Source: an uncultured Clostridia bacterium
GTDB taxonomy: Bacteria > Bacillota > Clostridia > Christensenellales > UBA1242
Direction of reading: 5' to 3'
Assembly (NCBI GenBank): GCA_947591785.1
Contig: CANQDK010000007.1
Location: forward strand, 4,986 to 68,985
Length of the DNA stretch: 64,000 nucleotides
Within the stretch, counting starts at the first letter, position 1; every line of letters begins with the position of its first letter. The translations under genes and the position numbers were made by a program. The notes under the pieces are model-generated. The model had not been told where the DNA came from, did not search any database, and saw only the letters and a program-made list of their open reading frames with translations. Shown piece after piece: positions 4,850-64,000 of the stretch.

Positions 4850-4858
4850 TTTTGTTTT

Positions 4859-15654: not shown

Positions 15655-15676
15655 AATAACACAAATTTGTGTTATT
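15655..15676 (-). terminator. terminator of the lipoprotein gene (overlaps its stop codon)
   Basis: AATAACACA-AATT-TGTGTTATT perfect 9-bp stem, followed on the minus strand by a T-run. Confidence 0.55.
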
Positions 15677-30425: not shown

Positions 30426-30815
30426 CTAATCATTTGCTGTTATAACAACATCAACACCAGTATTTAGGACATTTTTTAGAACGACATCTCCAAATTTAAC
30501 CTTCCCTAAACGCAACTTTTCAATTTCCTTAACACATTCAAACATTAAACTTTTTGGAATTGGAGCAGTTGTTTTACATGATTTTACTCCGTCAATGGTT
30601 TTAACAGATGTCGTTACGGTTCTTTTTGGACACGAAATTTCTTCCTTCGCAAAAACCACTCCGCGATTGCAACCATTCCCTTTAACAAGAACTTCGCCAT
30701 CAACAACTTTCACAGAAAGATTACAACCCATAGGGCACATAATGCAAATCATTTCCCTATCTAGATTTTTTGAATCTTTGACTTCTTTTGTGGAATTTTT
30801 ATTATTTTCTTTCAT
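30426..30815 (-). CDS. DUF1667 domain protein (third subunit of the FAD-dependent glycerol-3-phosphate dehydrogenase-like set)
   Basis: Cys motif CIMCPMGCNL.V......V.GNGCNRG is typical of DUF1667. The start is set at MKENNK, preceded by GAGGTG. Confidence 0.8.
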   Translation of the reverse strand: MKENNKNSTKEVKDSKNLDREMICIMCPMGCNLSVKVVDGEVLVKGNGCNRGVVFAKEEISCPKRTVTTSVKTIDGVKSCKTTAPIPKSLMFECVKEIEKLRLGKVKFGDVVLKNVLNTGVDVVITAND

Positions 30816-30835
30816 TTTTTCACCTCTTAACAGAT

Positions 30836-32074: not shown

Positions 32075-32087
32075 ATTTTTTCTCCTT

Positions 32088-33560: not shown

Positions 33561-33720
33561 CTCTTCCTCCTTATGTCATTTGAGCAAAAACATTGTTATT
33601 TACTTTATATAAATTTTAGCCATAAAACAAAATAAATGTCAAATAAATTAGGAATTTTTGAAATTTGTTTTATTAAACAAAAAAATTGTGTTAAAATTAT
33701 ATAAAAATGAAAGGTGGATT

Positions 33721-39568: not shown

Positions 39569-39819
39569 ATCTTCTCCTTTTTTTAGAATGTTAATTTCAT
39601 TTTATAATATTTTCTTCAAAATTTCAAATTATTTACTAAAATTTCATATTTTTATTTTAAATTTTTTATTTTTGTCTTTTTTTTGTTTTATTTTATTTTT
39701 TTTCTTATTTTTATTAATTAGTTTCATTTTGAACAATTTAATTTTTCGTAAATAAATTTAATTTTTTATTAACAATTCATTTATTTTTTATTCTTCCACA
39801 TTTTTTATATTCAAAAAAA

Positions 39820-39835
39820 AGAGCAAAACTGCTCT
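39820..39835 (-). terminator. rho-independent terminator of the giant gene
   Basis: AGAGCA-AAAC-TGCTCT flanked by A8 and T8, 17 nt after the stop codon. Confidence 0.65.
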
Positions 39836-39852
39836 TTTTTTTGATTTGGAAA

Positions 39853-42800
39853 CTATTGTTTGCTCATATATTTTCGTTTTTTATCTCGTTTTCGTCTTAT
39901 TATTAAAGCAAGGGCTACAATAAGGACAAGAACTAAGATTATTATTATAAGAATCCACAACCAGCCCAAATCAACTTCTGCATCAGCCCAAATTGCATAG
40001 AGTTCAAGTCTTTCAAAGTCAACAACAATTGTTGCACCGTCAAAATACAACAGATTGCCATCTTTATCTCCCCAACCAACAAAAATTTTGTTTCCATTTC
40101 TAAATGTATTGGATTGAAGAGTCATTGTTGAACCATACGTTAATGGTTTTTGTTCAAAGAATTCTATGCTTCCATTGTTTGGCCTAAATACTATTGATGA
40201 TGTTTTTCTCAATGCGTTTGCATAAAGTTTAAAGTCTTCAATTGATTCAACACTAAAGCGGAAGTTTCTTTCGATTGTTGAACCAGAGATATCAAAGCCG
40301 TTCAATTTCCAACCATTAAATTCATAACCGCTTTCCAAATCAACTGTAAGATTTAGAATTGCAGAATATTTAATACGATATCTTGTGACGCTGACACCTT
40401 GATAGTCTTCAAGACTAAGAACTCCATATTCTTCTGCTTCTTCAACAATTACATCTGAAATACCAACTGTTTTTCCAACAGAGAATGTAACATAAACAAG
40501 GAAATATCTGATTGTTATTTCAGTTGTTCCATCTCCAGAAACAATATATTCTGTGTCAGTTGTTTCATAATCGTATCCCTTAAATTGCTTTGTTAAGTCA
40601 TGTAGATTTATGGTGTAACCTTCACCCCAACCAACAGATGAATTTGTGATTACATCTTTTTCTTTGACTTTCTCAATTGTTTCTGTCACTTCAAGTTTAA
40701 ATTCTTGGCCAAGAATTTCAACATAGTGGTTCAAGATAAACGAACTCTTTCCTTCAATCGCTTTTGCTTGAATTTCAAAAGAAAGTTCACTGGTAAGTTC
40801 AAAATTCATAACACTTTCATTAATTCTGAAAATATATGATTGACGTTCTTCATCCCAACCAGGAAGAGTCTTTTCTTCACCATTTACTGTCACAACACAA
40901 GAAACAAAATCGTATCCTTTCTTCACAACAACTTTAACTTCAATCTCGTCTCCAAAGTAAATCTCATTTTGATTTGAAGCATTTACATAAATTTGTTCAC
41001 CATTAATGTCAACATATTCAATTTGCTCAGGGTTGTATGTGACTGTGATTCTAACTTGTTTTGGTGTAAAGAAGAACTTAATTACAGATTTTCCGCTTCC
41101 ATCAATGTATGCTGTCCCTTCCATTAAAACGCCTTCAACTTCAAATGAATAATTATTATCATATTCATAACCATTAAATTTGTCTTTGTAAAGCGTATCA
41201 AAATCTTTGACATACTTGGAAATATTCTCTGCAAATTCAGAAAGTTGCTCCTCTGTGAAAGTATCTTTTGTTGTTCCAACTTGATTTGATTGACAGATTT
41301 TTGTTTCAAGTCCATCTCTTGAGAGTGTGTAGTATTCCAATGTGTATGGAGTGTCATCTCGTGGTGCAATTGTGATTACAATTGAAACAGACTGTGTTAC
41401 TGCTTTACTCATTGTGTAAGAAATTGTGACAATTCTTTCTATCTCATTGTTTTGAGCTTCATTTTTATCTTCAACTTCTTCACCTTCAACAGCCAATTCG
41501 TAATCTTCAAATTTGAATCCTTGTTTATAGGATACTTTCAAAGTTAATGTCTGTCCAAACGCAAGTGTGACTGGAGAATCCAACTCTATTTCTTCTTCAT
41601 CACTTTCACGTTTCACCATTGCATTATCAAAACCGTTTCTTTCATCATTAAATGTGACAACAACATTATATACAATACGGTTGTAATAGAAATAAACTTG
41701 TTTATCAACATCAACTTCAAGATAGTCGCCCGCTATTATAGAAGATTTTAATGCATAGAAACCTTCTCCCGCAAGAGTTGTATCATTCTCTTTGAAACCA
41801 ACATATTCATCACTAAGTTCGTCATCAACATAACCTGTCTTGATTTCAACAAGAGAAATATCTTCTTCATAGTCTTCTTCATTATCTGAGAGATTGAGTG
41901 GTTGTTTCATGATATGAACAGTATAGTTAATCATATCAGCTTGTGGGTCAAGAGTTATTGTCACGTTTTCTGCTGGCATGTTAAATTTGATTGTAACAAC
42001 CAAACTTCCTTCTTCTTGTTCCCATGAGAATTCCATATCCCTTGATTCGTCACCTTTGTCAATTTGAACAGTGATATTCTCTTTTGCCAAAGTGTAACCT
42101 TTTTTGAGTGTGAAGGACAAAGAAACTTCTTCTTCATAAAGTGCTGTTCCGTAAAGCACAATTCCTAGATAGTCTTCAAATGCTTTTGGACATTTTTCAT
42201 TTTCTTCATTAAAGTTGATTGTATAATCAAAGGAATCTCTCCTGTATCTAACTCTTACAACTGTCTTTCCGTCACCCCTGATTAATATATCCTTTCCGTT
42301 GACAACATCACCCTCAAACATTTCCGCACTATCTTTAATGAAACCAGTCAAATCAAGAGCTGTTTCTTGTTCTATAATGGCACTTACAATATTCCAAGTG
42401 ATTAGTGATGCGGTTTCTCCTTTTGTTCTTTCATTTGAGATTGTGTATTCCGCACTTTCGCCAACTTCATAACTGTATGTTCCATCAAGTTTTTGTTTGT
42501 AAATCTCAATCGTGTATGGAGTGTCTGGATTTGGCTCTGCTTTAACTCTCAGATAAATATCTCCAGCAATATATTTCCTGATTCCATCTTCAACCAATGA
42601 GCCTTGCATTTTCAGGGTTTGCCCTTCAAGTTCAACTGTTGCATTTTCAACAACAGTTCCCTTAACTGTTATTGCCTCAAATTCCAATTTTGGACTGTTA
42701 TATCCAAGTGCAGGTTTAAAGACAAGTTTTACCGTGGCTTCATAATTTACACTGAATTTGACAATACGATTTCCTGTGTCAACTTCTCTGCCTGAATAGT

Positions 42801-48800: not shown

Positions 48801-51800
48801 AGTTCAAATGATTATGAACGTCATCTGCAAAGTATTGTGCTTGCCCATCTTTCTTTGTTGCCCAACCAGCAAATGTATAGCCTGTAAGTTCAAAGCCAAT
48901 TGTATTTGCATTCTTTATTGTGATGTTTTCTTCGTATGTCTTATTTTCTTCTTTGAAAACATTTTCATTGTCTTCGTCTTCTGTTGACTTATTTTTTGAA
49001 GAATAGTTCCTGTTATAAACAAGAGTGAATGTGTTTTCTGCCCAAACAAGACTAAGTTCAACCGTTCTGTTTTCAACTTTTGTCAAATTCTTAACTTCTT
49101 CTGGAAGTCTTGTCACAATGTTTGAATCTGACTGATAAGTCCAATAATCAGCATGGTATCCAGTGCGTGCAAAATAGTCATCACCATTAATGATTTGTGC
49201 GGTAAAATCTTCATCGTATCTGACAGTCAATGTTGGTGCAACCTTATCTGATTTTGCACTTCCACCTTCGCCAGCACTAAATGTGACATAATAGGTGTTT
49301 GCACACCAAACAGCATAAAGGTTATCTCCTCCAATTTTTTCAAGTGTGTAAGGAGAAGCATTTGCATATTCAGGAACAAAACTGTCCTCTTCTTCTCTTG
49401 TCAAATCATCATGAGCTTCTTTTGTCCAGCCAACAAAATGATATCCTTCACGCGTGAATGTGTTGTCATTCAATGTTGTTGCTGTCATATATAAAACATT
49501 CTGTGTTGCAGTTTTTTCTTCAGATTCCCCTGAAATATTGCTATGGAATGTCAAAACATATTCCTTTCCAGATGCTTTTGCAAAAACACTGATGGATTTT
49601 GCTTCATTTTCTTCATTAACAGTTGCGATTTCTGTGGTGTAATTTCCAGTATCAACTGCTCCGCCACTCATTTTTGGTTCTTTTGCATCATCAATAAACC
49701 AACCGTCAAATTGATAGCCACCATCTTGTCCTTCAACTTCCGCATCAGATTTTAATTTGTAAGACAAAGTTGCTGTTGTTCCATATTTTAAAGTGAATTT
49801 GCCATTTTGTGTGAATGATTCAACTGTCTTTTCATAACCGTTGATTGTAACATCAATTTTTTCAATAAGGTTTGGTGTGAAAGAAACGTTAACATCAATT
49901 TCTTTAAGTGTGTAATATATGCTCAAAATTGTTTTTTCAGGATTTGCAACAATCTTTTCATTTGTATTTGCAACAATTTCATCTCCAACCAATTTTCTAT
50001 CTGCTTTGAAATCAAATCTTGTATAGCCTTTGATAGTCAAATTCTTGTCAACTGGCACTTCTGCAATACCTGTGCCTGTAAGAGCTTGTGCTGTTGCATC
50101 TTTAATTGTTTCGCCATTCAAGTCTTGCATTTCATTTGCAGATTTAAAACGCATTCCTTGATACTCAACAATATCTTCGCCATCATTTTCAAGTGTTTCA
50201 ACATAGTATTTGATTATATAATCCTGCAAAGTTGGACTTATTGATGCAAAAACAAGCAAATTGCTGTTTGGCATTGTGAATGTTCCTGTCAAATCTTCAA
50301 CACTTGTTGAAACAACAACTGGTGGTTCTGTTTCAAAATGATTGAGTTTATATCCGTCGGCAATAGAGATTGTCACAACAACTTTTGTGCCATAACGAAC
50401 TTTATAAACTGTTTCAGTTGAATTGTCAACATCTGTATCTTCTGCATAAGAATCACCAAGTTTTTCAACCTTTTCAACATAACTATCATCAGCCAAAGGC
50501 TTTAAAGTTACGTTTGGTGATTGACGAAGAGTCAATTCATACTGGATTCTGTTATATTTAATCACAATCTTGTTGCTACTTGGTTCAGCGACAATAGTGA
50601 TTGACAAGTTCTCACCATTTTCAATCAATTCATCATTGAAACTGTAAGCATAGAATCCTGTCAACAAATGACTTGCCTGATTGACAACTTCTTCAATATC
50701 TGCATAAGTCAAAGCTGTTGCCATTGTTTTTGTGCCACTGTATGGAACAATTTTAACTTCCTCTGGATTTGAAACATAATCTTTTCCATCTGTTGTTTCA
50801 TACAAGAATTCAACTGTATAGCCAATTTTATTTGGTGTTGATTTTGCAACTAAATGAGTGTCATCAGCAAAATTGAATGTCAAATCTTCAAGCTTAACAT
50901 CATCTTTATAAAATCCTTCAAAAGAATATCCTGGAACTGGCACTCCTTCAAGAGTGATTTCTTGATAATACTTGATTTTCATTCCGTCAGAGCCAAGAGT
51001 TTGTTTTTCAGAACCTTTTTGTGTGACTTCTATTTTTGACACACCTTCTTTAAGTTCAACCGTCAATGTAAATGACTTTCTTGTGTAATATCTTGCAAGA
51101 ACAAGTTGAGTGATGTTACCCTCACCTTTTTGTGTGACATCCCCTTCAAGTTTTCCGTTGTTTTGTTCTGTAACTTCACTGCTGAATTTAAAGCCAAAAT
51201 ATTCATATTCTGCAATTGTCACAGTTGTGTCAATAAATCCAATAAGTTCTCCTGTGTGAGTGTCAAGTTCTCCTGCATCTGTTGTTTCAATGTCAAGATG
51301 ATATGTTCCGTCAAGTCCTTCCAAATAGTATTCCACTCTATATTCAGTTGGAGCACCAGCCCACATTGCATAGATTTTTCCTTCTGCATCAGTTTCACTT
51401 TCAAGATTAAACACATAGAAGTCGTATTTTTGCATTTCTGATTCACTTGTCACACTTCCGTGTTTAACTTTATAAATTCCACCAGCCGCATTTATGCTCA
51501 AAAGGTATACTTGAACATCTTCTTGACTGACAACGCCATCAGCATCCATTTTGTCTTGCAAAGCGTTTGTTATATCTTTTGAATCGTCTGTATATTTTGA
51601 TTTGCCTTCTTCGTTAAGTTTAACTGGTGAAACCGTGCTCCACCCAGCAAAGTTATAACCAGCACAAGTTGGTTCTTGTGGAATCTTGAGAGCGACATCA
51701 TAAGTTGCACTCAATTTTCTTTCGCCGCTATACTCTGCTTCACTTCTCCAAAGTTCAAGGTTGACATAATATGAATTTGCAGTCCATTTTGCATAGACTT

Positions 51801-54800: not shown

Positions 54801-57800
54801 AAGCAGAAGCTGAAAGAAAATCAAAAGTATGTGTTGCAGTTTCACCAGCAACTGTTCCAACAACTGTTTCAGGATTTGAAGTTGTTCCTGCAGTCCATTG
54901 TGAAATGCTGTAACCTTCTTTCGCAATAGATGTTATTTCAACACTGCTTCCATAAATAACCGTTATCGAACCACTCTTTGTCTGTTTATCAACAACAATG
55001 TCATCATTAACTTTGATTGACACATTCAAAACACCAACGCCAACTTCATAAGAAAGGCTGAAACCAACTGCTGTCCAATGAGCATACAAAGTGCCAGTAA
55101 GTGCTTGCGAGTAAATCCATTTCCCATCACCACTCAACCAGCCAGCAACTTCAGTGTCAACAATAGTTCCGTCTGCATTGAAAACCTTATTTCCTGAAGT
55201 TCTATCCGTATAGAATCCTTCAAGTTCAAATCCAGTTCTTGCTGCAACAGGAGTCCCATCACGATGTTCGTCAATAATCATAGGATTTTGAGTGTTGTAT
55301 TTTATTGTCTTAGTGTAAGTCCCACTTGGAGCAGGAATAACAGTTGATGTTGGATTGTCAAGTTCAAAAGTGATAACTGTGTCAATTTCACTCCATTCAG
55401 CTTGCAAAACAACATTTCCCCAAAGAACTCCATCTATATTTTCCAAATTTCCAGCAATAGAATTTATTCTGGCATTTTCCCAAGTTTGTCCAATTGAAGA
55501 ATCAGTTCCGTCAGCAATAACAAGCCAACGCACAGAATAACCATCTTTTCTTATTATAAAGTTGTTTCCAACAAAAGTGTCCTTTTGATATTTGGTTATG
55601 TAAAGTTTAACTTCTGGACTTTTAATTGTGTAACTCATCGTCTGATCAAGAGTCGATGTTGAACCATCAGCAAATTCAAACGTTCCACCATTTGCTTTAA
55701 ATGTGATTGTGTAAGAATTTAAACTCCAATCCGCAAATAGTTCAAGTGCTGAGCCAACATCACTTCTATCACTCTTCCAAACACCATTTTCTGTAAATCC
55801 ATCAACATTACTGAAAGACCAAACATTGTTTCCTTCAATATTTTCAACTTTAAGCAAAAGTTGAGTCTTTTCACCGAGTGAAACAGTGTAGCCTTTCAAA
55901 GTGTATCCATTCTTTTGAACAGGAATAACTGCTGCTGTGTCACCCTCTGAGTCAGCAAAGAGTTTACTATTGTCATATTCAACATAAATCAGCAAATCAC
56001 TTGTTGCACCTGCACTGTTTTTAAGAAGAACAGAATATCTCTCTGCTTTCCAATTTACATAAATGTTGGCATCTTTAACAGTGAATGTTAAAACTCCTTC
56101 ATCTTTCAAGATGTTTCCACTTTCGTCTGTCAAGGCAATTCCTGAACCAGCTTCGCCCGAGCGGTATCCTTGGAAAATGTAGCCTTCACGAGTATAACTT
56201 GACAAAGTTTTGAGTGCATTTCCAACAACTTGATTGCTTGCATCAATACTTGAATAGAATCCAATTCCATATTTTAAATATAGATATTCATCTTCTTCAT
56301 TATTGCATTTCTTAACAGTCAATTTGATTGTTTTTGGAGTGAATATTGGATAAAGAGTTTCTTCTCCTGCCAAAATCCAAGCACCTACTGAATCCGTATG
56401 TCCTTCAATATTTGGAACAAGTGCACCAGTCGAATCAATAAGAGCTGTTTTTCCACCAAGTTCAAGTCCCCAACCGCTGAAATTAAATCCGTCTTTCTGG
56501 ACTGTTGGCATCTTTCCAAGAAGTGTTGAACTGTTGAAAGTTGCAGTCATTGTTTCTGTCATTGGAGAGATTTCGTTGTTAAAATGAATTGTAAATTGGC
56601 GTGCTTCCCAAGATGCTGTGATAGTTGTGTCTCCTGCTGAGTATGTCCATTTTCCAATAATAGCACCATTCTCGTCAATAACTTTTGTTCCGCCAATATA
56701 CCAACCTTTGAACAAATATCCTTCAGGATTTGTCCTTGCTTTTAGAGCAGAAATTTTTTGCCCATCAAGTTGGTTTTCTTTATAACCTACCTTAATTTCA
56801 TTTCCATCATACTTCACATAAACAGTCACTGGTGTTTCATTTGATTGTGCAACGCCATCAAACAAAGCTTCCTGTGAATTTGTGTTTTTTGCACCATTAC
56901 TGTTCAAATCAAGTGTCAAGGCAATTAAGTTTGCTTCCCATTGTGCAACAAGAGTAACATTTCCATACATTCCCTTAAACGAGAAGTTTTCTGTTGGGTA
57001 GATTGTTCCGCTTTTCCAAGTTCCAGAAGTTGTTTTTGGCATCCAACCACCAAATTTATATCCACGCATAGTTGCTGTTGGCAATGGATTTCCATCACTT
57101 CCTTCACCTGTTGCTGTTCCATCAGTCCAAGTTGTTCCACCAACTGTATAACTCTTCACTGCGTTATCACTCAATGTTGCGTCATCAATTCCTTCATAGG
57201 TGACTGTGTATAAAATTTCTTTCCAAACTGCATAAAGTGTTTGGACAGTTTCGTTATCATTATCTTCAAAAGAGGTTGGGTTAAATAAGTCTGTTGGCTT
57301 CACAAGAGTGAAAGAATTTACGTCCTTATATTTCAAAGTTCCGCCACCAAAAGTGTGAGTCCAACCAACAAATTCATAGCCATTCTTTACAACCTGCCCC
57401 TGAACAGCATTTCCTTCTGCATCAAGTCCAGGCAAATTTCCATAAGCTTCTGCGTATGTCAATTTTTTCGTTGCAGATGTTGATGTTGAATCAATATCCC
57501 AGCCAGTTGCAATTCCTGTGTCATTAATTGTTGCACCATCACCACCTGTTGTCAAAGTGACATTATAACTTCCTGGTTCCCATTGAGCATAAACATTTAT
57601 TCTTGTGTTGTTATCTCTAATCCACTTTCCATTAGCAACATAACCATCGTTATTGTTGAGCATTGCATTTCCTGTGATAAGAATTTTTGCAGTATTTTCC
57701 TTACCAATTGCCCAACCATTGAAGTTTGTGTAGCCAATCGGTTTTGTTGGAGTGATTTGTGCTGATGTCACAATACCAGAACCAACACCATTATCTCCAA

Positions 57801-60800
57801 CTGATTGATAAATTTTTGAATCATCAAAAACAACATAGACTGGATTTGTTGTATTTAAAGAAGAACCATTATAGTTGTTTAGATTAAGGTAAATCGCAAA
57901 ATTATGTGGTATCCATTTAGCATAAAGAACGCAAACCAAAACTCCAGATTTATCTTCACCAGCATAAATCCAATTTCCATTGGCATCTGTTCTTTCAGAC
58001 ACATTCTTTTGCAGACGTCCTGTTGCATCGAAAACAACAGCACCGTTGCGATTATCTTGTCCACTGATTGTCCAACCAGCAAAATCATAGCCATCTCTTG
58101 TTGCGATTGGTAAAGCAGTTGTTTCTCCTTCTTCATCTTGATAGATGTGTGTTGTGTCATAAAGAGCCCAAACTGCACCGTCAATATATCCGCTTCCTGT
58201 CGCAGTTGTTGAGCCATAAGGTTTTTCGCTTGCAGAATCATTCAAATCAAGCACGATTTTGATTCTTCTAGCACCCCAAACTGCATACAACATTGTTCCA
58301 TATTTATCGCCAGATGACGAATCAACAACTGTGTCAACAGAGAAGCCATTTGCAGTGTTGTAAACCAATTTTTGATTTAAGCTGAAAGTTACTGATTGTG
58401 AGAATTGACTTGTGCTCCAACCAAGAAGCGTGTAGCCAGGACGAGTGAACACCAGTCCTTTCAATGTGCAAGATTCATTGTAAGTTGCTTCATCAATATC
58501 GTCTTCCCCTGAAACAAGAGTCGAATTGTCCCCACCAACATATTTAATATAGTAAACATTTGATTTCCAAACAGCATAGAGTGTTGTTCCTGTGATTGTT
58601 CCAGTTGTATCAGCTGAGAAACCATTTGTTGTGTTGTATGTGAGATTCACTCCAAGACCAAACTGAGCTTCAGCAGTTTTTGAAGGAGTTGTTTTTGTCA
58701 AGCTCCACCCAATGATAGAGTATCCTTCTTTAGAGAAAGCTTTACCATTGTTTGTATTAAATGATTTGTCATAATCCACCTTGTCTGTTGCAGTTCCAGA
58801 CCCAGTGTTTGCATCATAAGTTATTGTATAATTTCTTGGTGTCCATTGAGCATAAATCTTAATGTTTGAAGTTGTGTCTACTTTTGTTTCCTTTGTGACA
58901 GAAGTGCCATCTGTTGCAGAAGTAAACCAACCCTTAAATGAATACCCTTCTTTTTCAAGTGTTGGCAAATCTCCATAAGTTGCATCATAAGTCACATTTT
59001 TTGTTGCACCTGTTTGAGTTGTTGCCCAGCCACTTGGCAAAGTTCCTTTAACTTTTCCGCCACCAAAATCCGCTTCCAATTTAATATCGGTTCTTGCAGA
59101 CCAAACAGCATAAAGGTTTATTGTTCCGCCATCAAGAGGCTCAACGTCAAAAGTTGAACCATTGACTGACGCACCGCCAGAAAACTTAGCAGATGTTGCA
59201 GTTCTGGATTCTGCCCAACCAGCAAAATTATATCCTTCTTTTGCCCAATCAGTTGGAAGAGTAAGAAGAGCCTTGTTGGTTTCATAGACAAATCCAGTTT
59301 GAGAAGTTGTCAATTCACCAGAGTAGCTTGCTTGTGTGTCATTGATGTAATAATTTATTGTATAAGAATTTGGAACCCAAACAACATAGATATTTTTCTT
59401 TTCATTGTTTACAGGTTTGTTTGTAAATTCAGCACCAGTGATTTCTTGCTTATCATTAAGCAATTTCCCACCAGTTGCAGTTTCAGCCCAACCGCCAAAA
59501 TGGTAGCCCTTTCGTGTCCAAGCACGATCATTAAATGCTGACAATGCTTTTGCTGTGTCATAAACGAAGCCTGTTTGTTCATAAGTTTCCGTTGTTGAAT
59601 AATTTTTGTTAAAGACGATGCTATATGAGTTTGCTTCCCAAATTGCATACAGTGTTTTGTCAGATGTCCAACTGTAAGCTATATTTTGTTGCCCGAGAGT
59701 GTAAGTCACAGCACTATTAGTTTCGCCCCAACCAATCAAATGGTAACCCGTTTTGGAGAAAGCAGAGCCGTTGTTTGCAGTAAATGTTTTACCAAAAACA
59801 ACTTTTTCGGATGCAGTTCCATTTCCACCATTTTTGTCGTATGTAAGAGTGTAAGTGACAGGAGTCCACTGAGCATAAATGGTATGTGCGTTTGCATTAG
59901 TCACCTTAGTAGATGACGTAACATTAACATTTGGAGCACCTGTTCCTTGCTTAGCAGTTCCCCAACCTGCGAAAGTATGGCCAGGTTTATTTGTTGTTGC
60001 AGATGTTGGCAAATTTGAGTAATTGCTGTTATAGTTCACCGTAATAGAATCAACAGAGCCAGCACCTCCGTCCCAATCCAAAGTGACAGTCACGCTTTTA
60101 GCAGTCCAGTTTGCAATAAGTGTAACAGACGCATCAGCAGTGAGCGTCAAATCACTGAAATAGGAATTTTTTGTAACCGTACCATTCCAAGAACTTACAT
60201 TTGAAGTGGAAGTTCCACTTTTTGCGGAAGAAGTGTTAAGTCCATTAGAAGAATTAGATGACCAACCTGCAAAATTGTAACCTGTCAAAGTTGGAGAAGT
60301 AATATTGAACGCAGTTCCAACTTTTGCAGAAACATCGCTAGGCATATTAGACAAACTAGATGTAGTCATTCCTGAAGGGAGATTTGAATTAAACTTAACA
60401 GTGTAAGCCACACCATTCCAATGAGCATATAGAGTTTGATTTGAATCTGTTTGGAAAGTGCTTGACGAAGTCACCTTTGTGCCACCCGTAGCAGATGTAT
60501 ACCAACCAGCAAAAGTGTAGCCACTTCTTGTAGGAGAGGTGTTAAGGGTAGAGCCATAAGTAGAATTATATGCAAGAGTATAAGATGAAGGCATACCTTT
60601 CACAGAAGTGTCTGTGCAGTTTTGATTAAAGGAGATAGTCCACTTGTGAGCGGTCCAAGTTGCCCACAAAGTTGGTTTCAAATCCGAAACAGTGCTTGAA
60701 CTTGTAATAACACTTCCAGAAGTAGAGTTTAATCTCCAATTTGCAAAGTCATATCCAACTTTAGTAGGATGAGTGTTCAATTTGGTTCCATAAGTCGAAC

Positions 60801-63800
60801 CATAAGTTGCAGTATAGGAACTTGGTCCACCATTTCCACCATTCATATTAAAGGAGACTGTAACTGACTGTCCTACCCATTTGGCAGTTATGGTTGTGTC
60901 TGCTGTAATTGTAATGGAATCAGTTTTACCATAAGTTTTTGTTCCAATAATCCAACCATCAAGAATATAGCCTGTTCTTTGAGGTAAATAACCTGATAAT
61001 GAAAATGTTCCTCCATATTTCACTTTCGCAGTTTTGGAATTACTATCATTTCCCTGACCCCAATTTCCACCATTAGGATTAATGGTAACTGTATAAGTCT
61101 TTATTGTAAACTGTGCATAATATCTTGTCGAAGACGTTGATGTCCATGTTGAAAGCAAACTACCTGAGCTATTAATTTTTTGTGTTCCACCTGAATCTGC
61201 TGTATACCAACCATTAAATGTATATCCTGTTTTACTTGCTGTCGGCTTTACTGTTGTCGTCGATGACGTTGATGAATATAATGAAGAACTGTTATATTGT
61301 GCATAAACGGTTGAATAATTTGCTGAATCTCCAGTATTTTTATCAAGAGTTATTGCATACCTATTAACTGAATATTGAGCATAATATGTTGGTGTGGATG
61401 TTGAAGACCAAGAACTTACCAAGGAACCAGAATTATCAATCATTTGTGTTCCACCTGAAGATGCTGTGTACCAACCATTAAATGTATAGCCTGTTTTGCT
61501 TGCTGTCGGCTTTACCGTTGTCGATGAAGTTTCTGACGAATATAATGTTTTACTGCCATACAGTGCCCAAACAGCCGAATAACTAGAACTTCCACCATTT
61601 GTTGTGCTAAGCGTTATTTTATATCTTCTCGCGGTATATTGTGCATAATATGTCACATTGGATGCTGCGGCAAATGCCGAAATTAATTTTCCTGAACTAT
61701 TAATCATCTGCGTTCCGCCTGAAGATGACGTATACCAACCAGAAAATGTATATCCTGTCCTGCTTGCTGTCGGTGTTACCGATGTTGATAGATCCTCTTT
61801 GGTATATAAGGTTGTACTTCCAGACTGCGTCCAAACCGAAGAGTAACTACAACTTCCACCATTTGTGGTGCTAAGCGTTATTTTATATTTGTTTGCTGTG
61901 TATTGTGCATAAAGTGTTCTATCTCCTGCTACTGTATAAGAAGTTACCATGCTCCCTGAAGAATTAATCAATTGTGAACCACCCGACTTTGCAGTATACC
62001 AACCATTAAATGTATAACCACTCTTGCTTGCTATAGGTGTAGCTGTTTCACTTCCAGATAAAGCTTTATATAAAGTTTTACTATCATATAATGCATAGAC
62101 AGTAGTACCTCCACTTCCACCGTTAGCATCAAGCGTTAGTTTATATCTTTTTGCACTAAATCTTGCATAGGCAGTAGTCCAAGATTTATAGAAATTTGAA
62201 TAAACAACCCTACCAGAAGAATTAATCAGTTGAGAGCCTCCACCAGAAGACGAATACCAGCCCAAAAAGTCATATCCCGTTTTAGACGAAGTAGGAGAAG
62301 TTGTTGAAGTGCTGGTATAAGACGATGATGTATATAAATCTGAAATACCATACACCATATATACCGTTGTATACGAGGGCTTAGTCCCTCCATTAGAAGA
62401 ATAGTTAAGCGTTACCGAATGCCGTTTGGGGTGAGTATCGGCAGTATAGTGAACTCCACTGAAATCATAGGTCCAATTACTCGAAAAAGTTCCCGCAGTA
62501 CGAGTAAATTTAGATGGAGCACTAGTTGCAAAAGTCGACCAAGTCCCCTCAAATTCTTGTTCAGAATCAATGCCGCTTGGAGTTGATGGTGTGACAGTTG
62601 ACCCACTTGAATTAAACAACTTATTAGAACCATAATGTGCATAATAAGTGTTATAACTTGCTGAAGTACTGCTTCCATTATGAAGATAAACGGCATAGGA
62701 TTTTTGTGTCCATACAGGATAAAGCTTTACATCGGAACCAAAACATGTAAAACCACTTACTGTTATTGTAGAACCACTAGTTGTTGACCAACCACTGAAA
62801 GTATATCCTGTTTTTGATGGAGTCCTTCCTGAAGGGATTGTAAAATATTCTCCACAAAAACCATAATCCGTATAAGACAGCCCATCGTAAGTTATGTTAG
62901 ACCTTCTTGCATAATTCGCATAAAGGGTGATTTGACAAGCATTATTTGCACCACTTTTTGCTGTTGCTTCCGATGTTGTTACGTTTCCACTCCCATAAGC
63001 GTATATTGTCGATGATGTCCAAGTATTCGTTCCAGCTGTTTTCCCAAATCCTCTAAATTGATAATAAATGTTAGGAGCAGTTCCAAGAGAGATTGGAGAT
63101 GTTGTATAAGCACTTAATTTAAAATATCGCTTATATGAAAACATATGAGAATAAGCATAATGAAAATAAGAGAAATATTGATTGTAATTTCCACCGGATG
63201 AACTTCCGTATTTTGATTCATAGGTTCCCGCTGTAAGTTTTCCTAAAGTACCATCATCGACATACCATGTAAGCATTAATTGTTGTAGACTTGTTGCCGT
63301 ATTACTAACATTTAAGCCACTTGTATATACTGGGTTAACAGAGGAACCATTCCCGTATTTCACATAAAGATAAATCGTAAAATTATGGTCTGTCGTTGCA
63401 TAAGTTTCTTCATCTCCGTCTGAACCATCTCCTTTTTCTTCACCTGTTTCACCATTTTCTCCATCAGGGTCTGTTTGCGTTTCTGCATTTTCTTCTCCAT
63501 TTTCACCATTTGAAGGCTCATTTTCTTGAAGGTTTCCATCAGGATTTTCTGTTTCTTTATTCGTTCCATTTCCATCGTTTGTTCCATCAACCGTGCCAGA
63601 TTCTTCTTGCTCTTCATCTTGATTATCAATTGAGTCTTGTGCATTTTGAGTTTCAGAAAATTCTTCCGAATCTTCACTTGCGTCAGGGTTGGATGATAGA
63701 GGGTCGGAATAGTATATAGTTCCGTCTCCGTCATCAACATTTTCATTGTCAACATTGCCTTCCTCTGCAGTAGAAATGCTTTGCTCATTCAAAGTTATTC

Positions 63801-63921
63801 TGTTGTTTTGAAGTAGAACAAGTCCTGATGTCAAAGTCATTGAAAAAATCAAAAATAAGAAAGATAGCACAACCCTGCCAAATCTTCCTGCCTTTTCAAA
63901 ATCTCTTATTTCTTTTTGCAT
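39853..63921 (-). CDS. giant (8,022 aa) repeat-built cell-surface protein: N-terminal signal/anchor, acidic spacer, ~50 Listeria-Bacteroides (Flg_new) repeats, MucBP-like and Ig-like modules, C-terminal TM anchor
   Basis: Single ORF of 24,069 nt. GGAG lies 8 nt before the ATG. N-terminal hydrophobic VVLSFLFLIFSMTLTSGLVLL. Repeat units such as YKITLSTTNGGS...TGYTFSGWYT...YYAQYT match the Flg_new/TIGR02543 pattern (GYxFxGW...LYAxW). C-terminal WLWILIIIILVLVLIVALALII followed by RRKRDKKRK. No competing ORF >142 codons in any other frame. Confidence 0.9.
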   Translation of the reverse strand: MQKEIRDFEKAGRFGRVVLSFLFLIFSMTLTSGLVLLQNNRITLNEQSISTAEEGNVDNENVDDGDGTIYYSDPLSSNPDASEDSEEFSETQNAQDSIDNQDEEQEESGTVDGTNDGNGTNKETENPDGNLQENEPSNGENGEENAETQTDPDGENGETGEEKGDGSDGDEETYATTDHNFTIYLYVKYGNGSSVNPVYTSGLNVSNTATSLQQLMLTWYVDDGTLGKLTAGTYESKYGSSSGGNYNQYFSYFHYAYSHMFSYKRYFKLSAYTTSPISLGTAPNIYYQFRGFGKTAGTNTWTSSTIYAYGSGNVTTSEATAKSGANNACQITLYANYARRSNITYDGLSYTDYGFCGEYFTIPSGRTPSKTGYTFSGWSTTSGSTITVSGFTCFGSDVKLYPVWTQKSYAVYLHNGSSTSASYNTYYAHYGSNKLFNSSGSTVTPSTPSGIDSEQEFEGTWSTFATSAPSKFTRTAGTFSSNWTYDFSGVHYTADTHPKRHSVTLNYSSNGGTKPSYTTVYMVYGISDLYTSSSYTSTSTTSPTSSKTGYDFLGWYSSSGGGSQLINSSGRVVYSNFYKSWTTAYARFSAKRYKLTLDANGGSGGTTVYALYDSKTLYKALSGSETATPIASKSGYTFNGWYTAKSGGSQLINSSGSMVTSYTVAGDRTLYAQYTANKYKITLSTTNGGSCSYSSVWTQSGSTTLYTKEDLSTSVTPTASRTGYTFSGWYTSSSGGTQMINSSGKLISAFAAASNVTYYAQYTARRYKITLSTTNGGSSSYSAVWALYGSKTLYSSETSSTTVKPTASKTGYTFNGWYTASSGGTQMIDNSGSLVSSWSSTSTPTYYAQYSVNRYAITLDKNTGDSANYSTVYAQYNSSSLYSSTSSTTTVKPTASKTGYTFNGWYTADSGGTQKINSSGSLLSTWTSTSSTRYYAQFTIKTYTVTINPNGGNWGQGNDSNSKTAKVKYGGTFSLSGYLPQRTGYILDGWIIGTKTYGKTDSITITADTTITAKWVGQSVTVSFNMNGGNGGPSSYTATYGSTYGTKLNTHPTKVGYDFANWRLNSTSGSVITSSSTVSDLKPTLWATWTAHKWTISFNQNCTDTSVKGMPSSYTLAYNSTYGSTLNTSPTRSGYTFAGWYTSATGGTKVTSSSTFQTDSNQTLYAHWNGVAYTVKFNSNLPSGMTTSSLSNMPSDVSAKVGTAFNITSPTLTGYNFAGWSSNSSNGLNTSSAKSGTSTSNVSSWNGTVTKNSYFSDLTLTADASVTLIANWTAKSVTVTLDWDGGAGSVDSITVNYNSNYSNLPTSATTNKPGHTFAGWGTAKQGTGAPNVNVTSSTKVTNANAHTIYAQWTPVTYTLTYDKNGGNGTASEKVVFGKTFTANNGSAFSKTGYHLIGWGETNSAVTYTLGQQNIAYSWTSDKTLYAIWEANSYSIVFNKNYSTTETYEQTGFVYDTAKALSAFNDRAWTRKGYHFGGWAETATGGKLLNDKQEITGAEFTNKPVNNEKKNIYVVWVPNSYTINYYINDTQASYSGELTTSQTGFVYETNKALLTLPTDWAKEGYNFAGWAESRTATSAKFSGGASVNGSTFDVEPLDGGTINLYAVWSARTDIKLEADFGGGKVKGTLPSGWATTQTGATKNVTYDATYGDLPTLEKEGYSFKGWFTSATDGTSVTKETKVDTTSNIKIYAQWTPRNYTITYDANTGSGTATDKVDYDKSFNTNNGKAFSKEGYSIIGWSLTKTTPSKTAEAQFGLGVNLTYNTTNGFSADTTGTITGTTLYAVWKSNVYYIKYVGGDNSTLVSGEDDIDEATYNESCTLKGLVFTRPGYTLLGWSTSQFSQSVTFSLNQKLVYNTANGFSVDTVVDSSSGDKYGTMLYAVWGARRIKIVLDLNDSASEKPYGSTTATGSGYIDGAVWALYDTTHIYQDEEGETTALPIATRDGYDFAGWTISGQDNRNGAVVFDATGRLQKNVSERTDANGNWIYAGEDKSGVLVCVLYAKWIPHNFAIYLNLNNYNGSSLNTTNPVYVVFDDSKIYQSVGDNGVGSGIVTSAQITPTKPIGYTNFNGWAIGKENTAKILITGNAMLNNNDGYVANGKWIRDNNTRINVYAQWEPGSYNVTLTTGGDGATINDTGIATGWDIDSTSTSATKKLTYAEAYGNLPGLDAEGNAVQGQVVKNGYEFVGWTHTFGGGTLKYKDVNSFTLVKPTDLFNPTSFEDNDNETVQTLYAVWKEILYTVTYEGIDDATLSDNAVKSYTVGGTTWTDGTATGEGSDGNPLPTATMRGYKFGGWMPKTTSGTWKSGTIYPTENFSFKGMYGNVTLVAQWEANLIALTLDLNSNGAKNTNSQEALFDGVAQSNETPVTVYVKYDGNEIKVGYKENQLDGQKISALKARTNPEGYLFKGWYIGGTKVIDENGAIIGKWTYSAGDTTITASWEARQFTIHFNNEISPMTETMTATFNSSTLLGKMPTVQKDGFNFSGWGLELGGKTALIDSTGALVPNIEGHTDSVGAWILAGEETLYPIFTPKTIKLTVKKCNNEEDEYLYLKYGIGFYSSIDASNQVVGNALKTLSSYTREGYIFQGYRSGEAGSGIALTDESGNILKDEGVLTFTVKDANIYVNWKAERYSVLLKNSAGATSDLLIYVEYDNSKLFADSEGDTAAVIPVQKNGYTLKGYTVSLGEKTQLLLKVENIEGNNVWSFSNVDGFTENGVWKSDRSDVGSALELFADWSLNSYTITFKANGGTFEFADGSTSTLDQTMSYTIKSPEVKLYITKYQKDTFVGNNFIIRKDGYSVRWLVIADGTDSSIGQTWENARINSIAGNLENIDGVLWGNVVLQAEWSEIDTVITFELDNPTSTVIPAPSGTYTKTIKYNTQNPMIIDEHRDGTPVAARTGFELEGFYTDRTSGNKVFNADGTIVDTEVAGWLSGDGKWIYSQALTGTLYAHWTAVGFSLSYEVGVGVLNVSIKVNDDIVVDKQTKSGSITVIYGSSVEITSIAKEGYSISQWTAGTTSNPETVVGTVAGETATHTFDFLSASAYYVSAHATPKEDIQYVVRFVRQNQNGGWAAYENARTCEDGITDSNLSLAKILRFIDSQEFEGLKGFEYYGSVYYTGLDTEQKRNPAKGFHNLATDEISPEEVFFKVEGDGSLVIEIYYTPKEYYLTYSSTSSDNIVGKWANGYVYENIPYTIYTPIVLPTETNLRAIGYVVTEWEVVSSNGSWNAGEKFSSSILAGQYGDITLRPVFTLEEYNINYTVPNDVVWNNGNRKQTYNYTDEVYLPTAEDMTRVGFNFEEWTETFTFDKWFIGTISSSGDFVASEVGKNSIYTHAFTLRSGVEYSLNTKVDCKVATFNLRGEFIEFLTVADGKFSASQTCVAYLLFEEAPDVSIQSSLVVKGSSAATIPTNSVGNRTYISNWSEVRYALQYNLNDVNDGFGSTEAKIYSADEELTLADNIAYVQFGSTNIYENEFHVDDEIVLKPVASRDGYKFLGWGTSTDKTSLLTDNEGNFLKDISLYTNEFGYWIKTSRTSLFAIWEAETYLLSLVGNGGEIKSVTETSGMTLNSGTTYAYDYVLEFDDENIEFTSQIQRNGYVFTGWARNASGDANRDGITNGSIYVDENIYTSSKTKLYNLATGSNVTLYARWESVFIEVTINLNDHDENGRLQGSTEARLSMTSIAGENGAKAESDEFGNKTYKFYVRYDETFDSAVSDKDTLASARLSDITRATTRHGYNNGGWWINREVTAEESRITPTTPARVEYDAVKDGYFMTLYVRWEAKTFDITYNQNKDGKGNGTTKPVSVIFDSGAVILSEEDLPELAVEGWTLSYWCTTASNGGTKYEFGQEIATGENGLENATTLYARRVENSYRIKYIDKKEGVEYDYPITPIEDIETEKVYRYSERIDLSPRFESRQYKFAGWAYTKDGKEIVLNEENNFGLGNGLFLANGEVDGQVYPTITLYATWEENTEIEYFITYNLNNGEWKNEEEIKHSFHSNELPITLPTEENVQRKGYSFEGWFTTEDFQEYSQITEIVSGTLNDVEVYAKWTANSYYVNLELWRSEAEYSGERKLSATYDVALKIPQEPTCAGYNFAGWSTVSPVKLNEEGKSKYTDDSKDITNALQDKMDADGVVSQEDVQVYLLSINAAGGIYKVKHGSVTSESEMQKYDFYVFNLESETDAEGKIYAMWAGAPTEYRVEYYLEGLDGTYHLDIETTDAGELDTHTGELIGFIDTTVTIAEYEYFGFKFSSEVTEQNNGKLEGDVTQKGEGNITQLVLARYYTRKSFTLTVELKEGVSKIEVTQKGSEKQTLGSDGMKIKYYQEITLEGVPVPGYSFEGFYKDDVKLEDLTFNFADDTHLVAKSTPNKIGYTVEFLYETTDGKDYVSNPEEVKIVPYSGTKTMATALTYADIEEVVNQASHLLTGFYAYSFNDELIENGENLSITIVAEPSSNKIVIKYNRIQYELTLRQSPNVTLKPLADDSYVEKVEKLGDSYAEDTDVDNSTETVYKVRYGTKVVVTISIADGYKLNHFETEPPVVVSTSVEDLTGTFTMPNSNLLVFASISPTLQDYIIKYYVETLENDGEDIVEYQGMRFKSANEMQDLNGETIKDATAQALTGTGIAEVPVDKNLTIKGYTRFDFKADRKLVGDEIVANTNEKIVANPEKTILSIYYTLKEIDVNVSFTPNLIEKIDVTINGYEKTVESFTQNGKFTLKYGTTATLSYKLKSDAEVEGQDGGYQFDGWFIDDAKEPKMSGGAVDTGNYTTEIATVNEENEAKSISVFAKASGKEYVLTFHSNISGESEEKTATQNVLYMTATTLNDNTFTREGYHFVGWTKEAHDDLTREEEDSFVPEYANASPYTLEKIGGDNLYAVWCANTYYVTFSAGEGGSAKSDKVAPTLTVRYDEDFTAQIINGDDYFARTGYHADYWTYQSDSNIVTRLPEEVKNLTKVENRTVELSLVWAENTFTLVYNRNYSSKNKSTEDEDNENVFKEENKTYEENITIKNANTIGFELTGYTFAGWATKKDGQAQYFADDVHNHLNFMVNGDADTQTVTLYAVWNENSYIITFNANTVDNDGDKLYGDTSKIVMPEDITAYYDQKVTTLTKGDVRLTGYVFLGWATKSISESPEDADYKFFALQEDGTFDIEPINLATGTEEDNRVTLYAIWKAETYYVTYELNGGKLAGEHGLDEQNRKSFKISDADLTLLDGDFITRNGYSLTGFEVVSADGNWKTQFPDSTIRLSAKILVNQGTYGDITLKAIWEGTPYKLTIEYFAYIGTPGNRTEKKVLAEKHEVNVNYGETFSVSSPVVRGYSLVNPEQETISGTMEFVGEEDDFASFDGLKYKVVYDAKEIKLNFVENKADGTTGDVTIENAEEDIFVRFGDALDNAYTKLEGAETPLTKFPNGTRKGYKFLGWALTSNGETISTDAFIVDVEEDLTLYAIWEKADSTFDVVFKFENLDDKDFSEDEAHKYLTEDVESKYTGLSAETDTMLDLATVLSKIPLEELPAIDGFAYTSELSIFVAPSADKVLTVEIRYEREYIELTLGGTIDEISVTVEALGINKEADFYVRKLGGATYVRYEAQLKLIGTSSDNGYEITNFSRDDGKSIEAVYEEKVGYTGTLDSMTATHLTITANHQGKLYSITFDANGGQDESGSRTFEMIEKCYMQEVDIEEVATKFTQEGYDKILGWTNDKENLVAQWTNIYVLDKAQGYSEKVTLYAIWQPKDVSVILEANPSNGANVNKLKIFVNDIEKSGFGSEFDVKYNDVLKFYSVYDDTSDFLYGGYAFVSFTAKLHKDADDEVVSFTEGSDEHGTYFYFTIKGLTTVTVNTEPSATTKYKVVHQRQALNGEFTIEEEDEEFSVGMTDVNLNIEYLNSHDKLKTYEGFTAIATVGKDGDGPVYNRFVDKDNDGEQDEDAITVVYVHYQRVHYAVSVEADEDSLSGFNSYEVQSLDEVNDIVDGSNPYNVMYNGRVKVVVSLTSAGYEITNISAKAIKTQGSVGAGGDLVWKTVEGKQGFYLEETLICEFKDLGGYAYEIVSMPAYDIEISLTISPKTFHITYNKNAGDETEPVVKNVVYLTEYTILNISNVVEGGWNYVGYHFVGWATSQGASNAGEVTYKFDNEKDDLSFESYNYTDDLTLYAVWERNSGNYTIEFWFENTTNGDYEQDESLLKSLTGPALTGDIIGIGDVEDSTIIIPMQAVEGFEVFGEDDQTPDGQRNITRIEVKDASSDDLTLKLFFKRLSYDLTVVVDNNSVEKVQIDEGYGIVVTDGQGKVDETENTTTLTAQVKHGVTVSLTMTSKFGYETPTISNVESEGNTFVMPLSADGCEVYVCADASKFKILFIAEEEGAQTENGEKQYEQEVIYKGVDQALIANQFALMGFNFDYWNIQIGENAYHFANGETLTNENMFDLLPDEFFVNGGVLTATAVWTTRGTATKFTVEYHAIDINGEDVILGTVDSMTRETLSSITDEIVQEGFLRIENIEYAGYKFKAIREGCDTQIKPDGSSKTIVDYTLERFNIEFFLTGEGVTETQNYNGFDSVTMTYTQSSKEEGSFTYNDEVEGGTVAEVEYTSSLTVVVTIKEGFEFDYARISAINGEMETKTFESLEENSFTFTLEKACDLNVEIATSLKEITITYHSNFDGEEEEKLSYQTEKWTKDFALAVPKEFAVTGWKIDGWLTDKTHTEIDYEATQFFKFDEETSVYTSSIELWGKWSPNNYTINFDVNGGVTEDGTLGEISSIEAFYGEKKELFTKESLNKFSKIGHTFGGLAISGIENEVKERENLDQINEKGLYLVDEIYYAYNLVTGANGDDEVTVLVVWNPNKYNIMLYKNEDKSASKDIGQVVYGQEGGIKLGSFDNIVKENPNWKWYGHDFKGWQYKDGDEWIEIERCETSDDVVISSTYFTGEKDIELYAIWENGKVDVRVQIIRANIDGGYEGSLLVDEFTIQVDINTSISADSVYRTYVRDNEEYQYVGFDYDLNKTRSNPDLEVTDDESLKNTLVVKVYFLRLSYTLSVEYDESIDETTIQMDSNVNPAYYSGREVDTGNRIVKFSVNYEATVKLVFKPALGYNSPKLEFEAITVKGTVVENATVELEGQTLKMQGSLVEDGIRKYIAGDIYLRVKAEPNPDTPYTIEIYKQKLDGTYSYEVGESAEYTISNERTKGETASLITWNIVSAIIEQETALDLTGFIKDSAEMFEGDVVNGKDILIRGDGKTVVRVRYRRDSFDYTINFNEENEKCPKAFEDYLGIVLYGTALYEEEVSLSFTLKKGYTLAKENITVQIDKGDESRDMEFSWEQEEGSLVVTIKFNMPAENVTITLDPQADMINYTVHIMKQPLNLSDNEEDYEEDISLVEIKTGYVDDELSDEYVGFKENDTTLAGEGFYALKSSIIAGDYLEVDVDKQVYFYYNRIVYNVVVTFNDERNGFDNAMVKRESDEEEIELDSPVTLAFGQTLTLKVSYKQGFKFEDYELAVEGEEVEDKNEAQNNEIERIVTISYTMSKAVTQSVSIVITIAPRDDTPYTLEYYTLSRDGLETKICQSNQVGTTKDTFTEEQLSEFAENISKYVKDFDTLYKDKFNGYEYDNNYSFEVEGVLMEGTAYIDGSGKSVIKFFFTPKQVRITVTYNPEQIEYVDINGEQIYVNASNQNEIYFGDEIEVKVVVKKGYDFVSCVVTVNGEEKTLPGWDEERQSYIFRINESVMNFELTSELSFEIQAKAIEGKSSFILNHYVEILGQEFKLEVTETIEKVKEKDVITNSSVGWGEGYTINLHDLTKQFKGYDYETTDTEYIVSGDGTTEITIRYFLVYVTFSVGKTVGISDVIVEEAEEYGVLSLEDYQGVSVTRYRIKYSAILNLTVDLESGYEFNGWKLNGFDISGSTIERNFRFSVESIEDFKLYANALRKTSSIVFRPNNGSIEFFEQKPLTYGSTMTLQSNTFRNGNKIFVGWGDKDGNLLYFDGATIVVDFERLELYAIWADAEVDLGWLWILIIIILVLVLIVALALIIRRKRDKKRKYMSKQ
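61100..62340 (-). repeat. intragenic tandem repeat array, period 258-264 nt (86-88 aa), at least 4-5 copies
   Basis: The anchor CCAACC(A/C)... (reverse complement of the GW core) recurs at 61207, 61471, 61735 and 61999 (exactly 264 nt apart) and near 62257 (258 nt). There are patches of >90% nucleotide identity, e.g. ACTTCCACCATTTGT(T/G)GTGCTAAGCGTTATTTTATAT in two copies. Confidence 0.75.
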
Positions 63922-64000
63922 AACCTCATCTCCATTTTGATAATCTCTATTTACAAGAAATTTCCAATTTTAAGTCACACAACTTTTCAGCGTAAATTTA

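Follow-up and report, generated by a model that had tools for sequence, protein, structure and literature searches.

The 64,000-nt stretch of contig CANQDK010000007.1 from an uncultured Clostridia bacterium, hereafter called the window, contains a single gene encoding a protein of 8,022 amino acids (aa) with long series of Flg_new repeats. The product of this giant gene is likely to be a Sec-exported, C-terminally membrane-anchored fibrillar surface adhesin or spacer of a low-GC gut Clostridia bacterium, as judged from its sequence. The gene itself is real and intact, with an open reading frame (ORF), a ribosome-binding site, and a terminator.

The ORF is located on the minus strand at positions 39853..63921, starts with ATG, and spans 24,069 nt, which correspond to 8,022 codons and a TAG codon, the lone stop, at its end. 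The Shine-Dalgarno sequence GGAG (63930..63933, minus strand), read from the sequence, lies 8 nt upstream of the ATG at 63921. An intrinsic terminator on the same strand (39811..39844), composed of a 15-bp hairpin and a U-tract, begins 11 nt past the TAG stop. The predicted folding energy of the hairpin is -18.1 kcal/mol (z = -6.1), and none of 200 shuffled sequences folded equally well. The hairpin was overlooked by a consensus terminator scan and picked up by RNA folding; the miss is probably due to the pairing of an A-run with the U-run. The ORF reading and RNA folding agree with the first-pass annotation of this DNA, which described one uninterrupted 24,069-nt gene with a GGAG-N8-ATG start and a terminator after the stop. 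A recount of ORFs also upheld its claim that the frame is maintained: the longest ORF in all other frames across the same 24 kb has 142 codons. The main frame exceeds this length more than 50-fold, and therefore its openness is not a product of chance. The G+C content of the giant gene is 36.1%, and that of the window 33.5%.

Other assemblies of the locus were found using the adjacent gene for a 388-aa protein. Logan contigs ERR10663693 and ERR10663691 are 100% identical to the window, and the ENA contig ERZ27249451 (NODE_104, 63,819 bp) is 99.99% identical. Over the last 9.7 kb (3' end) of the giant gene, all three assemblies are free of indels. Just two single-nucleotide polymorphisms relative to the window were found, both outside the giant gene, in a neighboring hydrolase gene. 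The gene call of the ENA assembly for the giant ORF is likewise 8,022 aa, and the four assemblies do not differ in length where they are comparable. The best internal DNA tandem repeat has a period of 264 nt and 3-4 copies with 71-79% identity, and the other internal DNA repeats are motif-level matches of 30-55 nt. Because the internal DNA repeats have diverged, their collapse or expansion in short-read assembly is unlikely.

The protein contains exactly two hydrophobic segments, aa 17-37 and aa 7987-8008, according to a Kyte-Doolittle scan. The N-terminal segment (63811..63873; all segments of the protein are encoded on the minus strand) is preceded by a basic region (K3, R6, K10, R13, and R16), and is predicted to be a Sec signal peptide or an uncleaved signal anchor. 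It is followed by an acidic low-complexity spacer, aa 38-175 (63397..63810), which contains 44 aspartates and glutamates versus three lysines and arginines, and has no Pfam match. The next region, aa 176-324 (62950..63396), is N-terminal and distal, rich in tyrosine, serine, threonine, and glycine, and has neither a Pfam match nor a recognized adhesive domain. It may represent a degenerate B-repeat-like unit. The sole match within it to the hidden Markov models (HMMs) built from the repeats of the protein itself, at aa 233-323, is non-significant (independent E-value = 1.0), and the first unit of the iterated model (aa 298-417) overlaps just the last ~27 residues of the region. A homologue search with aa 176-600 returned generic short Flg_new proteins alone and no orthologous N-termini. 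At the other end of the chain, the final Flg_new-type unit is followed by a transmembrane helix, aa 7987-8008 (WLWILIIIILVLVLIVALALII; 39898..39963), identified by hydropathy and kept in orthologues, and by a basic tail, aa 8009-8022 (RRKRDKKRKYMSKQ; 39856..39897), which is predicted to be cytoplasmic. The hydrophobic signal or anchor, the acidic spacer of ~135 aa, and the transmembrane helix with a basic tail had all been proposed previously, and are borne out by hydropathy and composition.

A regular-expression search of the last 3,500 aa, which include the hydrophobic stretch and basic tail, gave no LPXTG-like motif. An LPXTG sortase-anchored protein was rejected since the motif is missing near the C-terminus. 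An S-layer or wall-binding protein was rejected since there is no SLH, GW, LysM, or CWB match, and an enzyme-bearing "fibrillar enzyme" since there is no catalytic domain.

The family Flg_new (PF09479, cut-off 27 bits) scores 447.1 bits (E = 3.4e-137) in aa 1-4100 and 124.9 bits (E = 1.4e-36) in aa 3901-8022. The scores of TIGR02543 (cut-off 20.95 bits) are 189.7 and 76.3 bits in the N- and C-terminal halves, respectively, and are both above the cut-off. Pfam delineates 17 plus 5 individually significant Flg_new stretches, and no family other than Flg_new reaches its threshold in the whole protein. The first-pass annotation named the failure of profile searches to detect Flg_new-type repeats as an outcome that would speak against it; the searches detected them. 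The self-built HMMs tile ~49 Flg_new units (F units), close to the ~50 Flg_new or TIGR02543 cores counted before, with the family scores far above threshold, and 14 copies each of two additional module types, B and C. A profile of 20 F units matches the InlB B-repeat in the PDB (2Y5P, E = 5.9e-8) and five other InlB chains (E of ~1e-6). Because the unit profile matches the solved structure of the B-repeat, the F units are identified by sequence comparison as true homologues of InlB B-repeats. According to published work, the InlB B-repeat is a beta-grasp domain of the periscope or spacer type that also takes part in receptor binding, and Flg_new has been treated as a stalk domain of fibrillar adhesins. 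The numbers of Flg_new units tend to be higher, although not significantly, in host-associated gut methanogens.

The modules are organized into four consecutive parts. An unbroken array of ~27-29 Flg_new units, identified by Pfam, TIGR02543, and self-HMM tiling, extends over aa 325-2956 (55054..62949). It is followed by the first C module and then the first B module, aa 2957-3163 (54433..55053), detected by the self-HMMs with E = 2.4e-26 and 1.8e-24, respectively. The second block, aa 3164-4190 (51352..54432), contains ~9 Flg_new-type units according to self-HMM tiling. The last part, aa 4191-7986 (39964..51351), is an acidic mosaic of 13 B modules, 13 C modules, and ~13 Flg_new units, delineated using self-alignments, HMM tiling, AlphaFold2, and Foldseek. 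Twelve of its B modules have a C module directly after them, forming two-module units of ~200 aa.

One of the Flg_new units in the second block carries an insertion of ~110 aa (aa ~3300-3410, window positions ~53690-54020) between the motifs GFNFEEW and YISNW. The insertion contains two cysteines, matches no Pfam family, and may be a small binding domain lodged within the unit.

The composition of the protein changes along its length. The segment of aa 501-1500 contains 30-35% serine and threonine and just 3-5% aspartate and glutamate. In aa 4000-7500, the content of aspartate and glutamate is 17-20%, and the net charge is -37 to -56 per 500 residues; over aa 4000-8000, it is -35 to -56 per 500 aa. 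The gradient in serine and threonine versus aspartate and glutamate divides the protein into two physically different halves, which may correspond to an O-glycosylated outer part and a polyanionic stalk.

The number of B modules agrees with the ~14 MucBP-like modules reported by the first-pass annotation, and a beta-grasp-like fold is seen in a structural model; the assignment to the MucBP family is not supported. Only one of the 14 B modules (aa 5267-5356) matches MucBP (PF06458, cut-off 23 bits), with 19.7 bits and E = 1.5e-3, and the scan of the whole protein gave no MucBP match at E <= 0.01. The B modules fall short of the family threshold, and the term "MucBP-like" is defensible as a statement about the fold class. 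The prediction of the structure in segments, suggested together with that annotation, yielded a beta-grasp-like model of one B module. The model, calculated by AlphaFold2 with the 14 paralogues as the multiple sequence alignment, has a beta-beta-alpha-beta-beta topology, a predicted local distance difference test (pLDDT) of 76, and a predicted template modeling score (pTM) of 0.68. The matches listed for it by Foldseek are mostly beta-grasp domains, every one weaker than E = 1e-3. They include staphylococcal SSL C-domains, domain 2kyw of a Pediococcus adhesion exoprotein (prob 0.75), SraP, protein L, the streptokinase alpha domain (TMq 0.52-0.54), staphylokinase, ubiquitin variants, and Mub 3i57 (E = 0.37). 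The model of a two-module B-C unit has a pLDDT of 74 and a pTM of 0.70, and its top PDB match is the type-2 repeat of Mub (3i57, E = 1.7e-3), followed by InlB392. When the PDB was searched with sequence profiles of B-C, B, and C, nothing meaningful came up, and hhalign detected no relationship of B modules to Flg_new units or to C modules.

The C modules, also 14 in number, had been counted correctly and labeled Ig-like; no Big or Ig family of Pfam matches the C modules or the whole protein. Three of the 14 match Flg_new_2, the family of divergent InlB B-repeats (PF18998, cut-off 23.6 bits), at E <= 0.1, all below threshold (best 21.1 bits, E = 3e-4). The hhalign comparison of the C and F profiles gives E = 9e-4 with a probability of 23% over the GY-F-GW core. 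In the two-module model, the C part has an all-beta structure (pLDDT 85-90); its matches, to antibody V domains (TM 0.2-0.3) and also to InlB392, are weak and partial. It is plausible that the C modules resemble divergent InlB B-repeats more than Ig domains, through a distant relationship.

Representatives of GTDB species were scanned with the 388-aa protein, the gene of which is positioned directly downstream of the giant gene (38402-39568, minus strand) and has only a weak Pfam match, to DAP_DH_C. The scan gave no 100% match; the best hits are 82-86% identical and belong to metagenome-assembled genomes from the gut, obtained from rabbit ("Lapin") samples, Hadza people, the mouse-gut MGBC catalogue, and other sources. 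The NCBI labels of the nearest representatives are inconsistent (uncultured Clostridia, Christensenella, Catabacter, Lachnospiraceae, and Eubacteriales); the protein from Clostridium sp. CAG:440 is 67% identical. An ORF longer than 1,300 aa is present in the same place and orientation in the ~16 closest loci (L004-L020 and L064), in which the neighbor protein is at least 74% identical, whereas the more distant relatives have no syntenic giant ORF. The syntenic ORFs mostly run off the 10-kb flank, so that at least 3,200 aa are visible, and eleven of the orthologues were each read over their last ~3,200 aa.

The syntenic ORFs are colinear with aa ~4400-7985 of the protein from the window. The order of modules is essentially kept in all eight tested loci and in three library relatives, P0002, P0003, and P0006; an example of the order is ...FFFFF-BC-F-C-BC-F-BC-F-BC-FFF-BC-B-BC-BC-BC-F. 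The giant protein is 24-30% identical to its orthologues, and the products of seven flanking genes of the same loci are 46-84% identical. This faster divergence is the pattern expected of an exposed surface protein. A phmmer (HMMER) search with the C-terminal 1,099 aa against 1.84 billion cluster representatives gave 589 matches at E <= 1e-3, ~20 of which cover the B-C region. Their identity reaches at most 33%, and the longest of them, P0002 (6,326 aa), is a fragment truncated at its N-terminus. The small number of matches and their low identity indicate that the B-C super-repeat is clade-specific and fast-evolving; the giant size is conserved. A giant all-Flg_new design also exists elsewhere, as indicated by the sequence of P0005, a complete protein of 5,703 aa that has 47 F units besides a signal sequence and a transmembrane helix at the C-terminus.

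Most orthologue C-termini have a tryptophan-rich lead-in such as WW(I/L)W, a transmembrane helix of 20-24 aa, and a tail rich in lysine and arginine. About half of those read end with ...M(S/A)KQ-COOH, despite the overall identity of ~25-30%; this conserved tetrapeptide could serve in sorting or retention. In loci L006, L004, L014, L017, and L019, the giant ORF at the syntenic position is split, reduced in length, or interrupted. L006 contains two ORFs, of 1,603 and 1,683 aa, on the two sides of a stretch of N, and L014 has a different tail. These irregularities could be assembly gaps or real decay or variation of the gene. The 388-aa protein is 76-86% identical in most of the loci carrying the giant ORF, and 74% identical in L019.

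We infer the following export, topology, extension, and adhesion of the giant protein. The basic N-terminus and the hydrophobic segment would direct the chain into the Sec pathway. The C-terminal helix would serve as a stop-transfer anchor, with the lysine- and arginine-rich tail kept in the cytoplasm according to the positive-inside rule. The ~7,950 residues outside the cell would then form a string of ~77 small all-beta or beta-grasp modules. If each module contributes ~3.5-4.5 nm, the extended fiber could be roughly 0.25-0.35 µm long. The membrane-proximal half, the acidic mosaic of B-C units and B-repeats, may act as a stalk that crosses the cell wall and keeps the chain extended. The distal half would be formed by the uninterrupted serine- and threonine-rich, almost uncharged B-repeat array, capped by the acidic, putatively disordered segment. 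Since no tip domain was detected, any binding would most likely be multivalent, of low affinity, and borne by the repeats, as is reportedly the case for the binding of mucus by the Mub repeats of Lactobacillus reuteri. Likely targets include host mucus glycans, food particles, or other cells.

Several points weigh against a free adhesive fiber of this kind. If the N-terminal segment stays uncleaved, both ends of the protein would be tethered and the chain would form a loop. Pfam scans of the protein identified no adhesive tip, lectin or carbohydrate-binding module (CBM), or wall-binding domain, and aa 1-341, the insertion with its surroundings (aa 3300-3440), and other odd segments match no Pfam family even at E up to 1-10. 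We know of no ligand for any Flg_new array. The folds of the B and C modules come from moderate-confidence models calculated with shallow, paralogue-only alignments of 12-14 sequences, and have no Foldseek match at E <= 1e-3. The 5' ~7.7 kb of the gene are backed solely by the equal gene length in the ENA assembly, and both Logan contigs break inside the gene.

The absence of a detected tip or ligand-binding domain would also fit a non-adhesive spacer or coat, in which an acidic brush without a specific ligand sets the distance to neighbors, shields the wall from phages, antibodies, or enzymes, or holds a hydration layer. The strong net negative charge of aa 4000-8000 and the description of beta-grasp B-repeats as periscope or spacer domains point in the same direction, and rapid sequence change under a preserved architecture is more in line with selection for length and shape than for a binding site. 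However, the hallmark of periscope proteins is variation in length caused by nearly identical tandem repeats in the DNA, and the best repeats of the giant gene are just 71-79% identical. Furthermore, the distal half of the protein, uncharged and rich in serine and threonine, is unlike the stalk and suggests a functionally distinct outer part. Binding roles have been documented for B-repeats, and are said to exist for Mub-type repeats. We therefore regard a purely passive coat as unlikely, although it is the strongest of the alternatives.

The repeats could alternatively act as weak carbohydrate-binding modules of a scaffold that captures polysaccharides or particles, holding dietary fiber or mucin glycans for enzymes encoded elsewhere, a purpose resembling that of cellulosomal scaffoldins and B-repeat-bearing glycoside hydrolases. 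The gut habitat of the organism suits this function, and Flg_new and Flg_new_2 occur in carbohydrate-active proteins of gut bacteria, such as pectin esterase proteins with a divergent InlB B-repeat. In addition, one match of the N-terminal query has the dockerin PF00404 beside Flg_new, and the F-unit profile matches an exo-alpha-sialidase chain with E = 1.8e-4. Nevertheless, Pfam scans found no cohesin, dockerin, CBM, or glycoside hydrolase domain in the giant protein, and no carbohydrate-active enzyme genes were recognized among the neighbors scanned. Carbohydrate binding by the B-repeat itself is not on record, and a capture scaffold is thus doubtful.

An artifact, whether through chimerism or mis-assembly of the repeats or as a decaying pseudogene that happens to be open, is very improbable and was rejected: although the sources are short-read metagenome assemblies, the two Logan contigs end within the gene, and its 5' ~7.7 kb have no readable sequence from a second assembly, the frame of 8,022 codons compares with a maximum of 142 in other frames, there are no near-identical DNA repeats able to collapse, the three further assemblies are identical over 9.7 kb, with one of them also matching in the overall length of the gene, and colinear orthologues occupy the same chromosomal position in many species.

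The fibrillar surface protein that we propose can be compared with several known systems. It shares with Mub of L. reuteri a two-domain super-repeat of ~200 aa iterated in a very large surface protein of gut Firmicutes. The type-2 repeat of Mub is the top PDB match of the B-C model, and the B module is modeled with a beta-grasp-like topology, as in MucBP. Unlike in Mub, the threshold of MucBP is not reached, the Foldseek similarity is weak (best 1.7e-3), and the C-terminal transmembrane anchor is without LPXTG, the motif through which Mub is anchored. The Ebh/Embp proteins of staphylococci, on the scale of 10,000 aa, have an N-terminal export signal, a repeat rod, and a C-terminal transmembrane anchor with a charged cytoplasmic tail, and are not attached by sortase. 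The giant protein has a common size scale, export signal, repeat rod, and transmembrane anchor with a charged tail, and the design therefore has precedents such as Ebh. The repeats of Ebh are alpha-helical FIVAR/GA repeats, whereas the modules of the giant protein are beta-grasp or all-beta in the models. No search revealed a sequence relationship to Ebh, although none was aimed at it.

In InlB, a single B-repeat is located between the LRR/IR region and the GW domains, and the protein signals through Met; the giant protein has no LRR, IR, or GW. It resembles fibrillar adhesins (Monzon et al.) in its repeated stalk, here ~77 tandem modules that include Flg_new, in its cell anchor, and in its rapid evolution, and differs from them in having no detectable adhesive domain and in its transmembrane anchor, as opposed to LPXTG or a wall-binding domain. 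P0005, with 47 Flg_new units, an N-terminal signal, and a C-terminal transmembrane helix, has the same overall design. Compared with such plain Flg_new arrays, the giant protein contains an additional 14 + 14 modules of types present in ~20 of the 1.84 billion clusters, as determined by single-sequence phmmer. Proteins of 10,000-30,000 aa with an Flg_new repeat have been mentioned in gut Clostridia (bioRxiv 10.1101/2023.11.21.568195). The first-pass annotation knew of no characterized protein that builds a fiber on this scale from Flg_new repeats. Indeed, no protein of this type is known to have been characterized by experiment; the rarity was overstated, considering the 5,703-aa P0005 and the 10,000-30,000-aa proteins of the preprint. 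Giant Flg_new repeat proteins have already been noted in gut Clostridia, and the one described here is striking and not unprecedented.

New here is a well-verified, unusually large example with a lineage-specific pair of uncatalogued modules. The locus exposes two module types, B and C, that are outside the coverage of Pfam, and opens no new category. To our knowledge, Flg_new repeats are among the commonest surface-protein repeats of gut bacteria and archaea, and neither a ligand nor a role has been assigned to the arrays. The locus is valuable for testing them, as it provides a complete, assembly-checked giant gene with a conserved chromosomal position and colinear, highly diverged orthologues. 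A bolder proposal, which we make tentatively and consider improbable, is that B and C constitute two undescribed beta-grasp-related families forming a Mub-like super-repeat confined to one clade of uncultured low-GC gut Clostridia, and that the ~0.3-µm fiber, with its acidic stalk and serine- and threonine-rich, possibly glycosylated distal array, is the main organelle of attachment to host mucus or partner cells. If true, this would be the first system offering a way to define a ligand for Flg_new arrays.

Elsewhere, the window consists of ordinary chromosomal DNA, with genes for pyruvate:ferredoxin oxidoreductase, GlmS, alanine racemase, UvrC, thymidylate kinase, an ABC-2 transporter, and a family-2 glycosyltransferase, and four tRNAs. 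A glycerol utilization cluster identified by Pfam (30426-35175) includes an FGGY glycerol kinase on the plus strand and, on the minus strand, a DAO/BFD-type FAD oxidoreductase, a Pyr_redox_2 protein, and a DUF1667 protein. As judged from its domains, the set resembles an anaerobic glycerol-3-phosphate dehydrogenase. BspA-type leucine-rich repeats (LRR_5, E = 4.7e-38) are present in a 476-aa protein (26576-28006, minus strand), which is probably a second surface protein of the window. The 545-aa ORF at 12920-14557 on the minus strand has an N-terminal transmembrane helix and no Pfam match. It contains B-repeat-like motifs (AYKFEGWF ... LAVYSVYKFNITY), and may encode another divergent Flg_new_2-like surface protein. 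Two additional genes on the minus strand have products without a Pfam family: a 503-aa protein (15672-17183), probably a lipoprotein, with an LTGC lipobox and an acidic region at its C-terminus, and an 896-aa protein with multiple transmembrane helices and a long, coiled-coil-like C-terminal tail (19442-22132).

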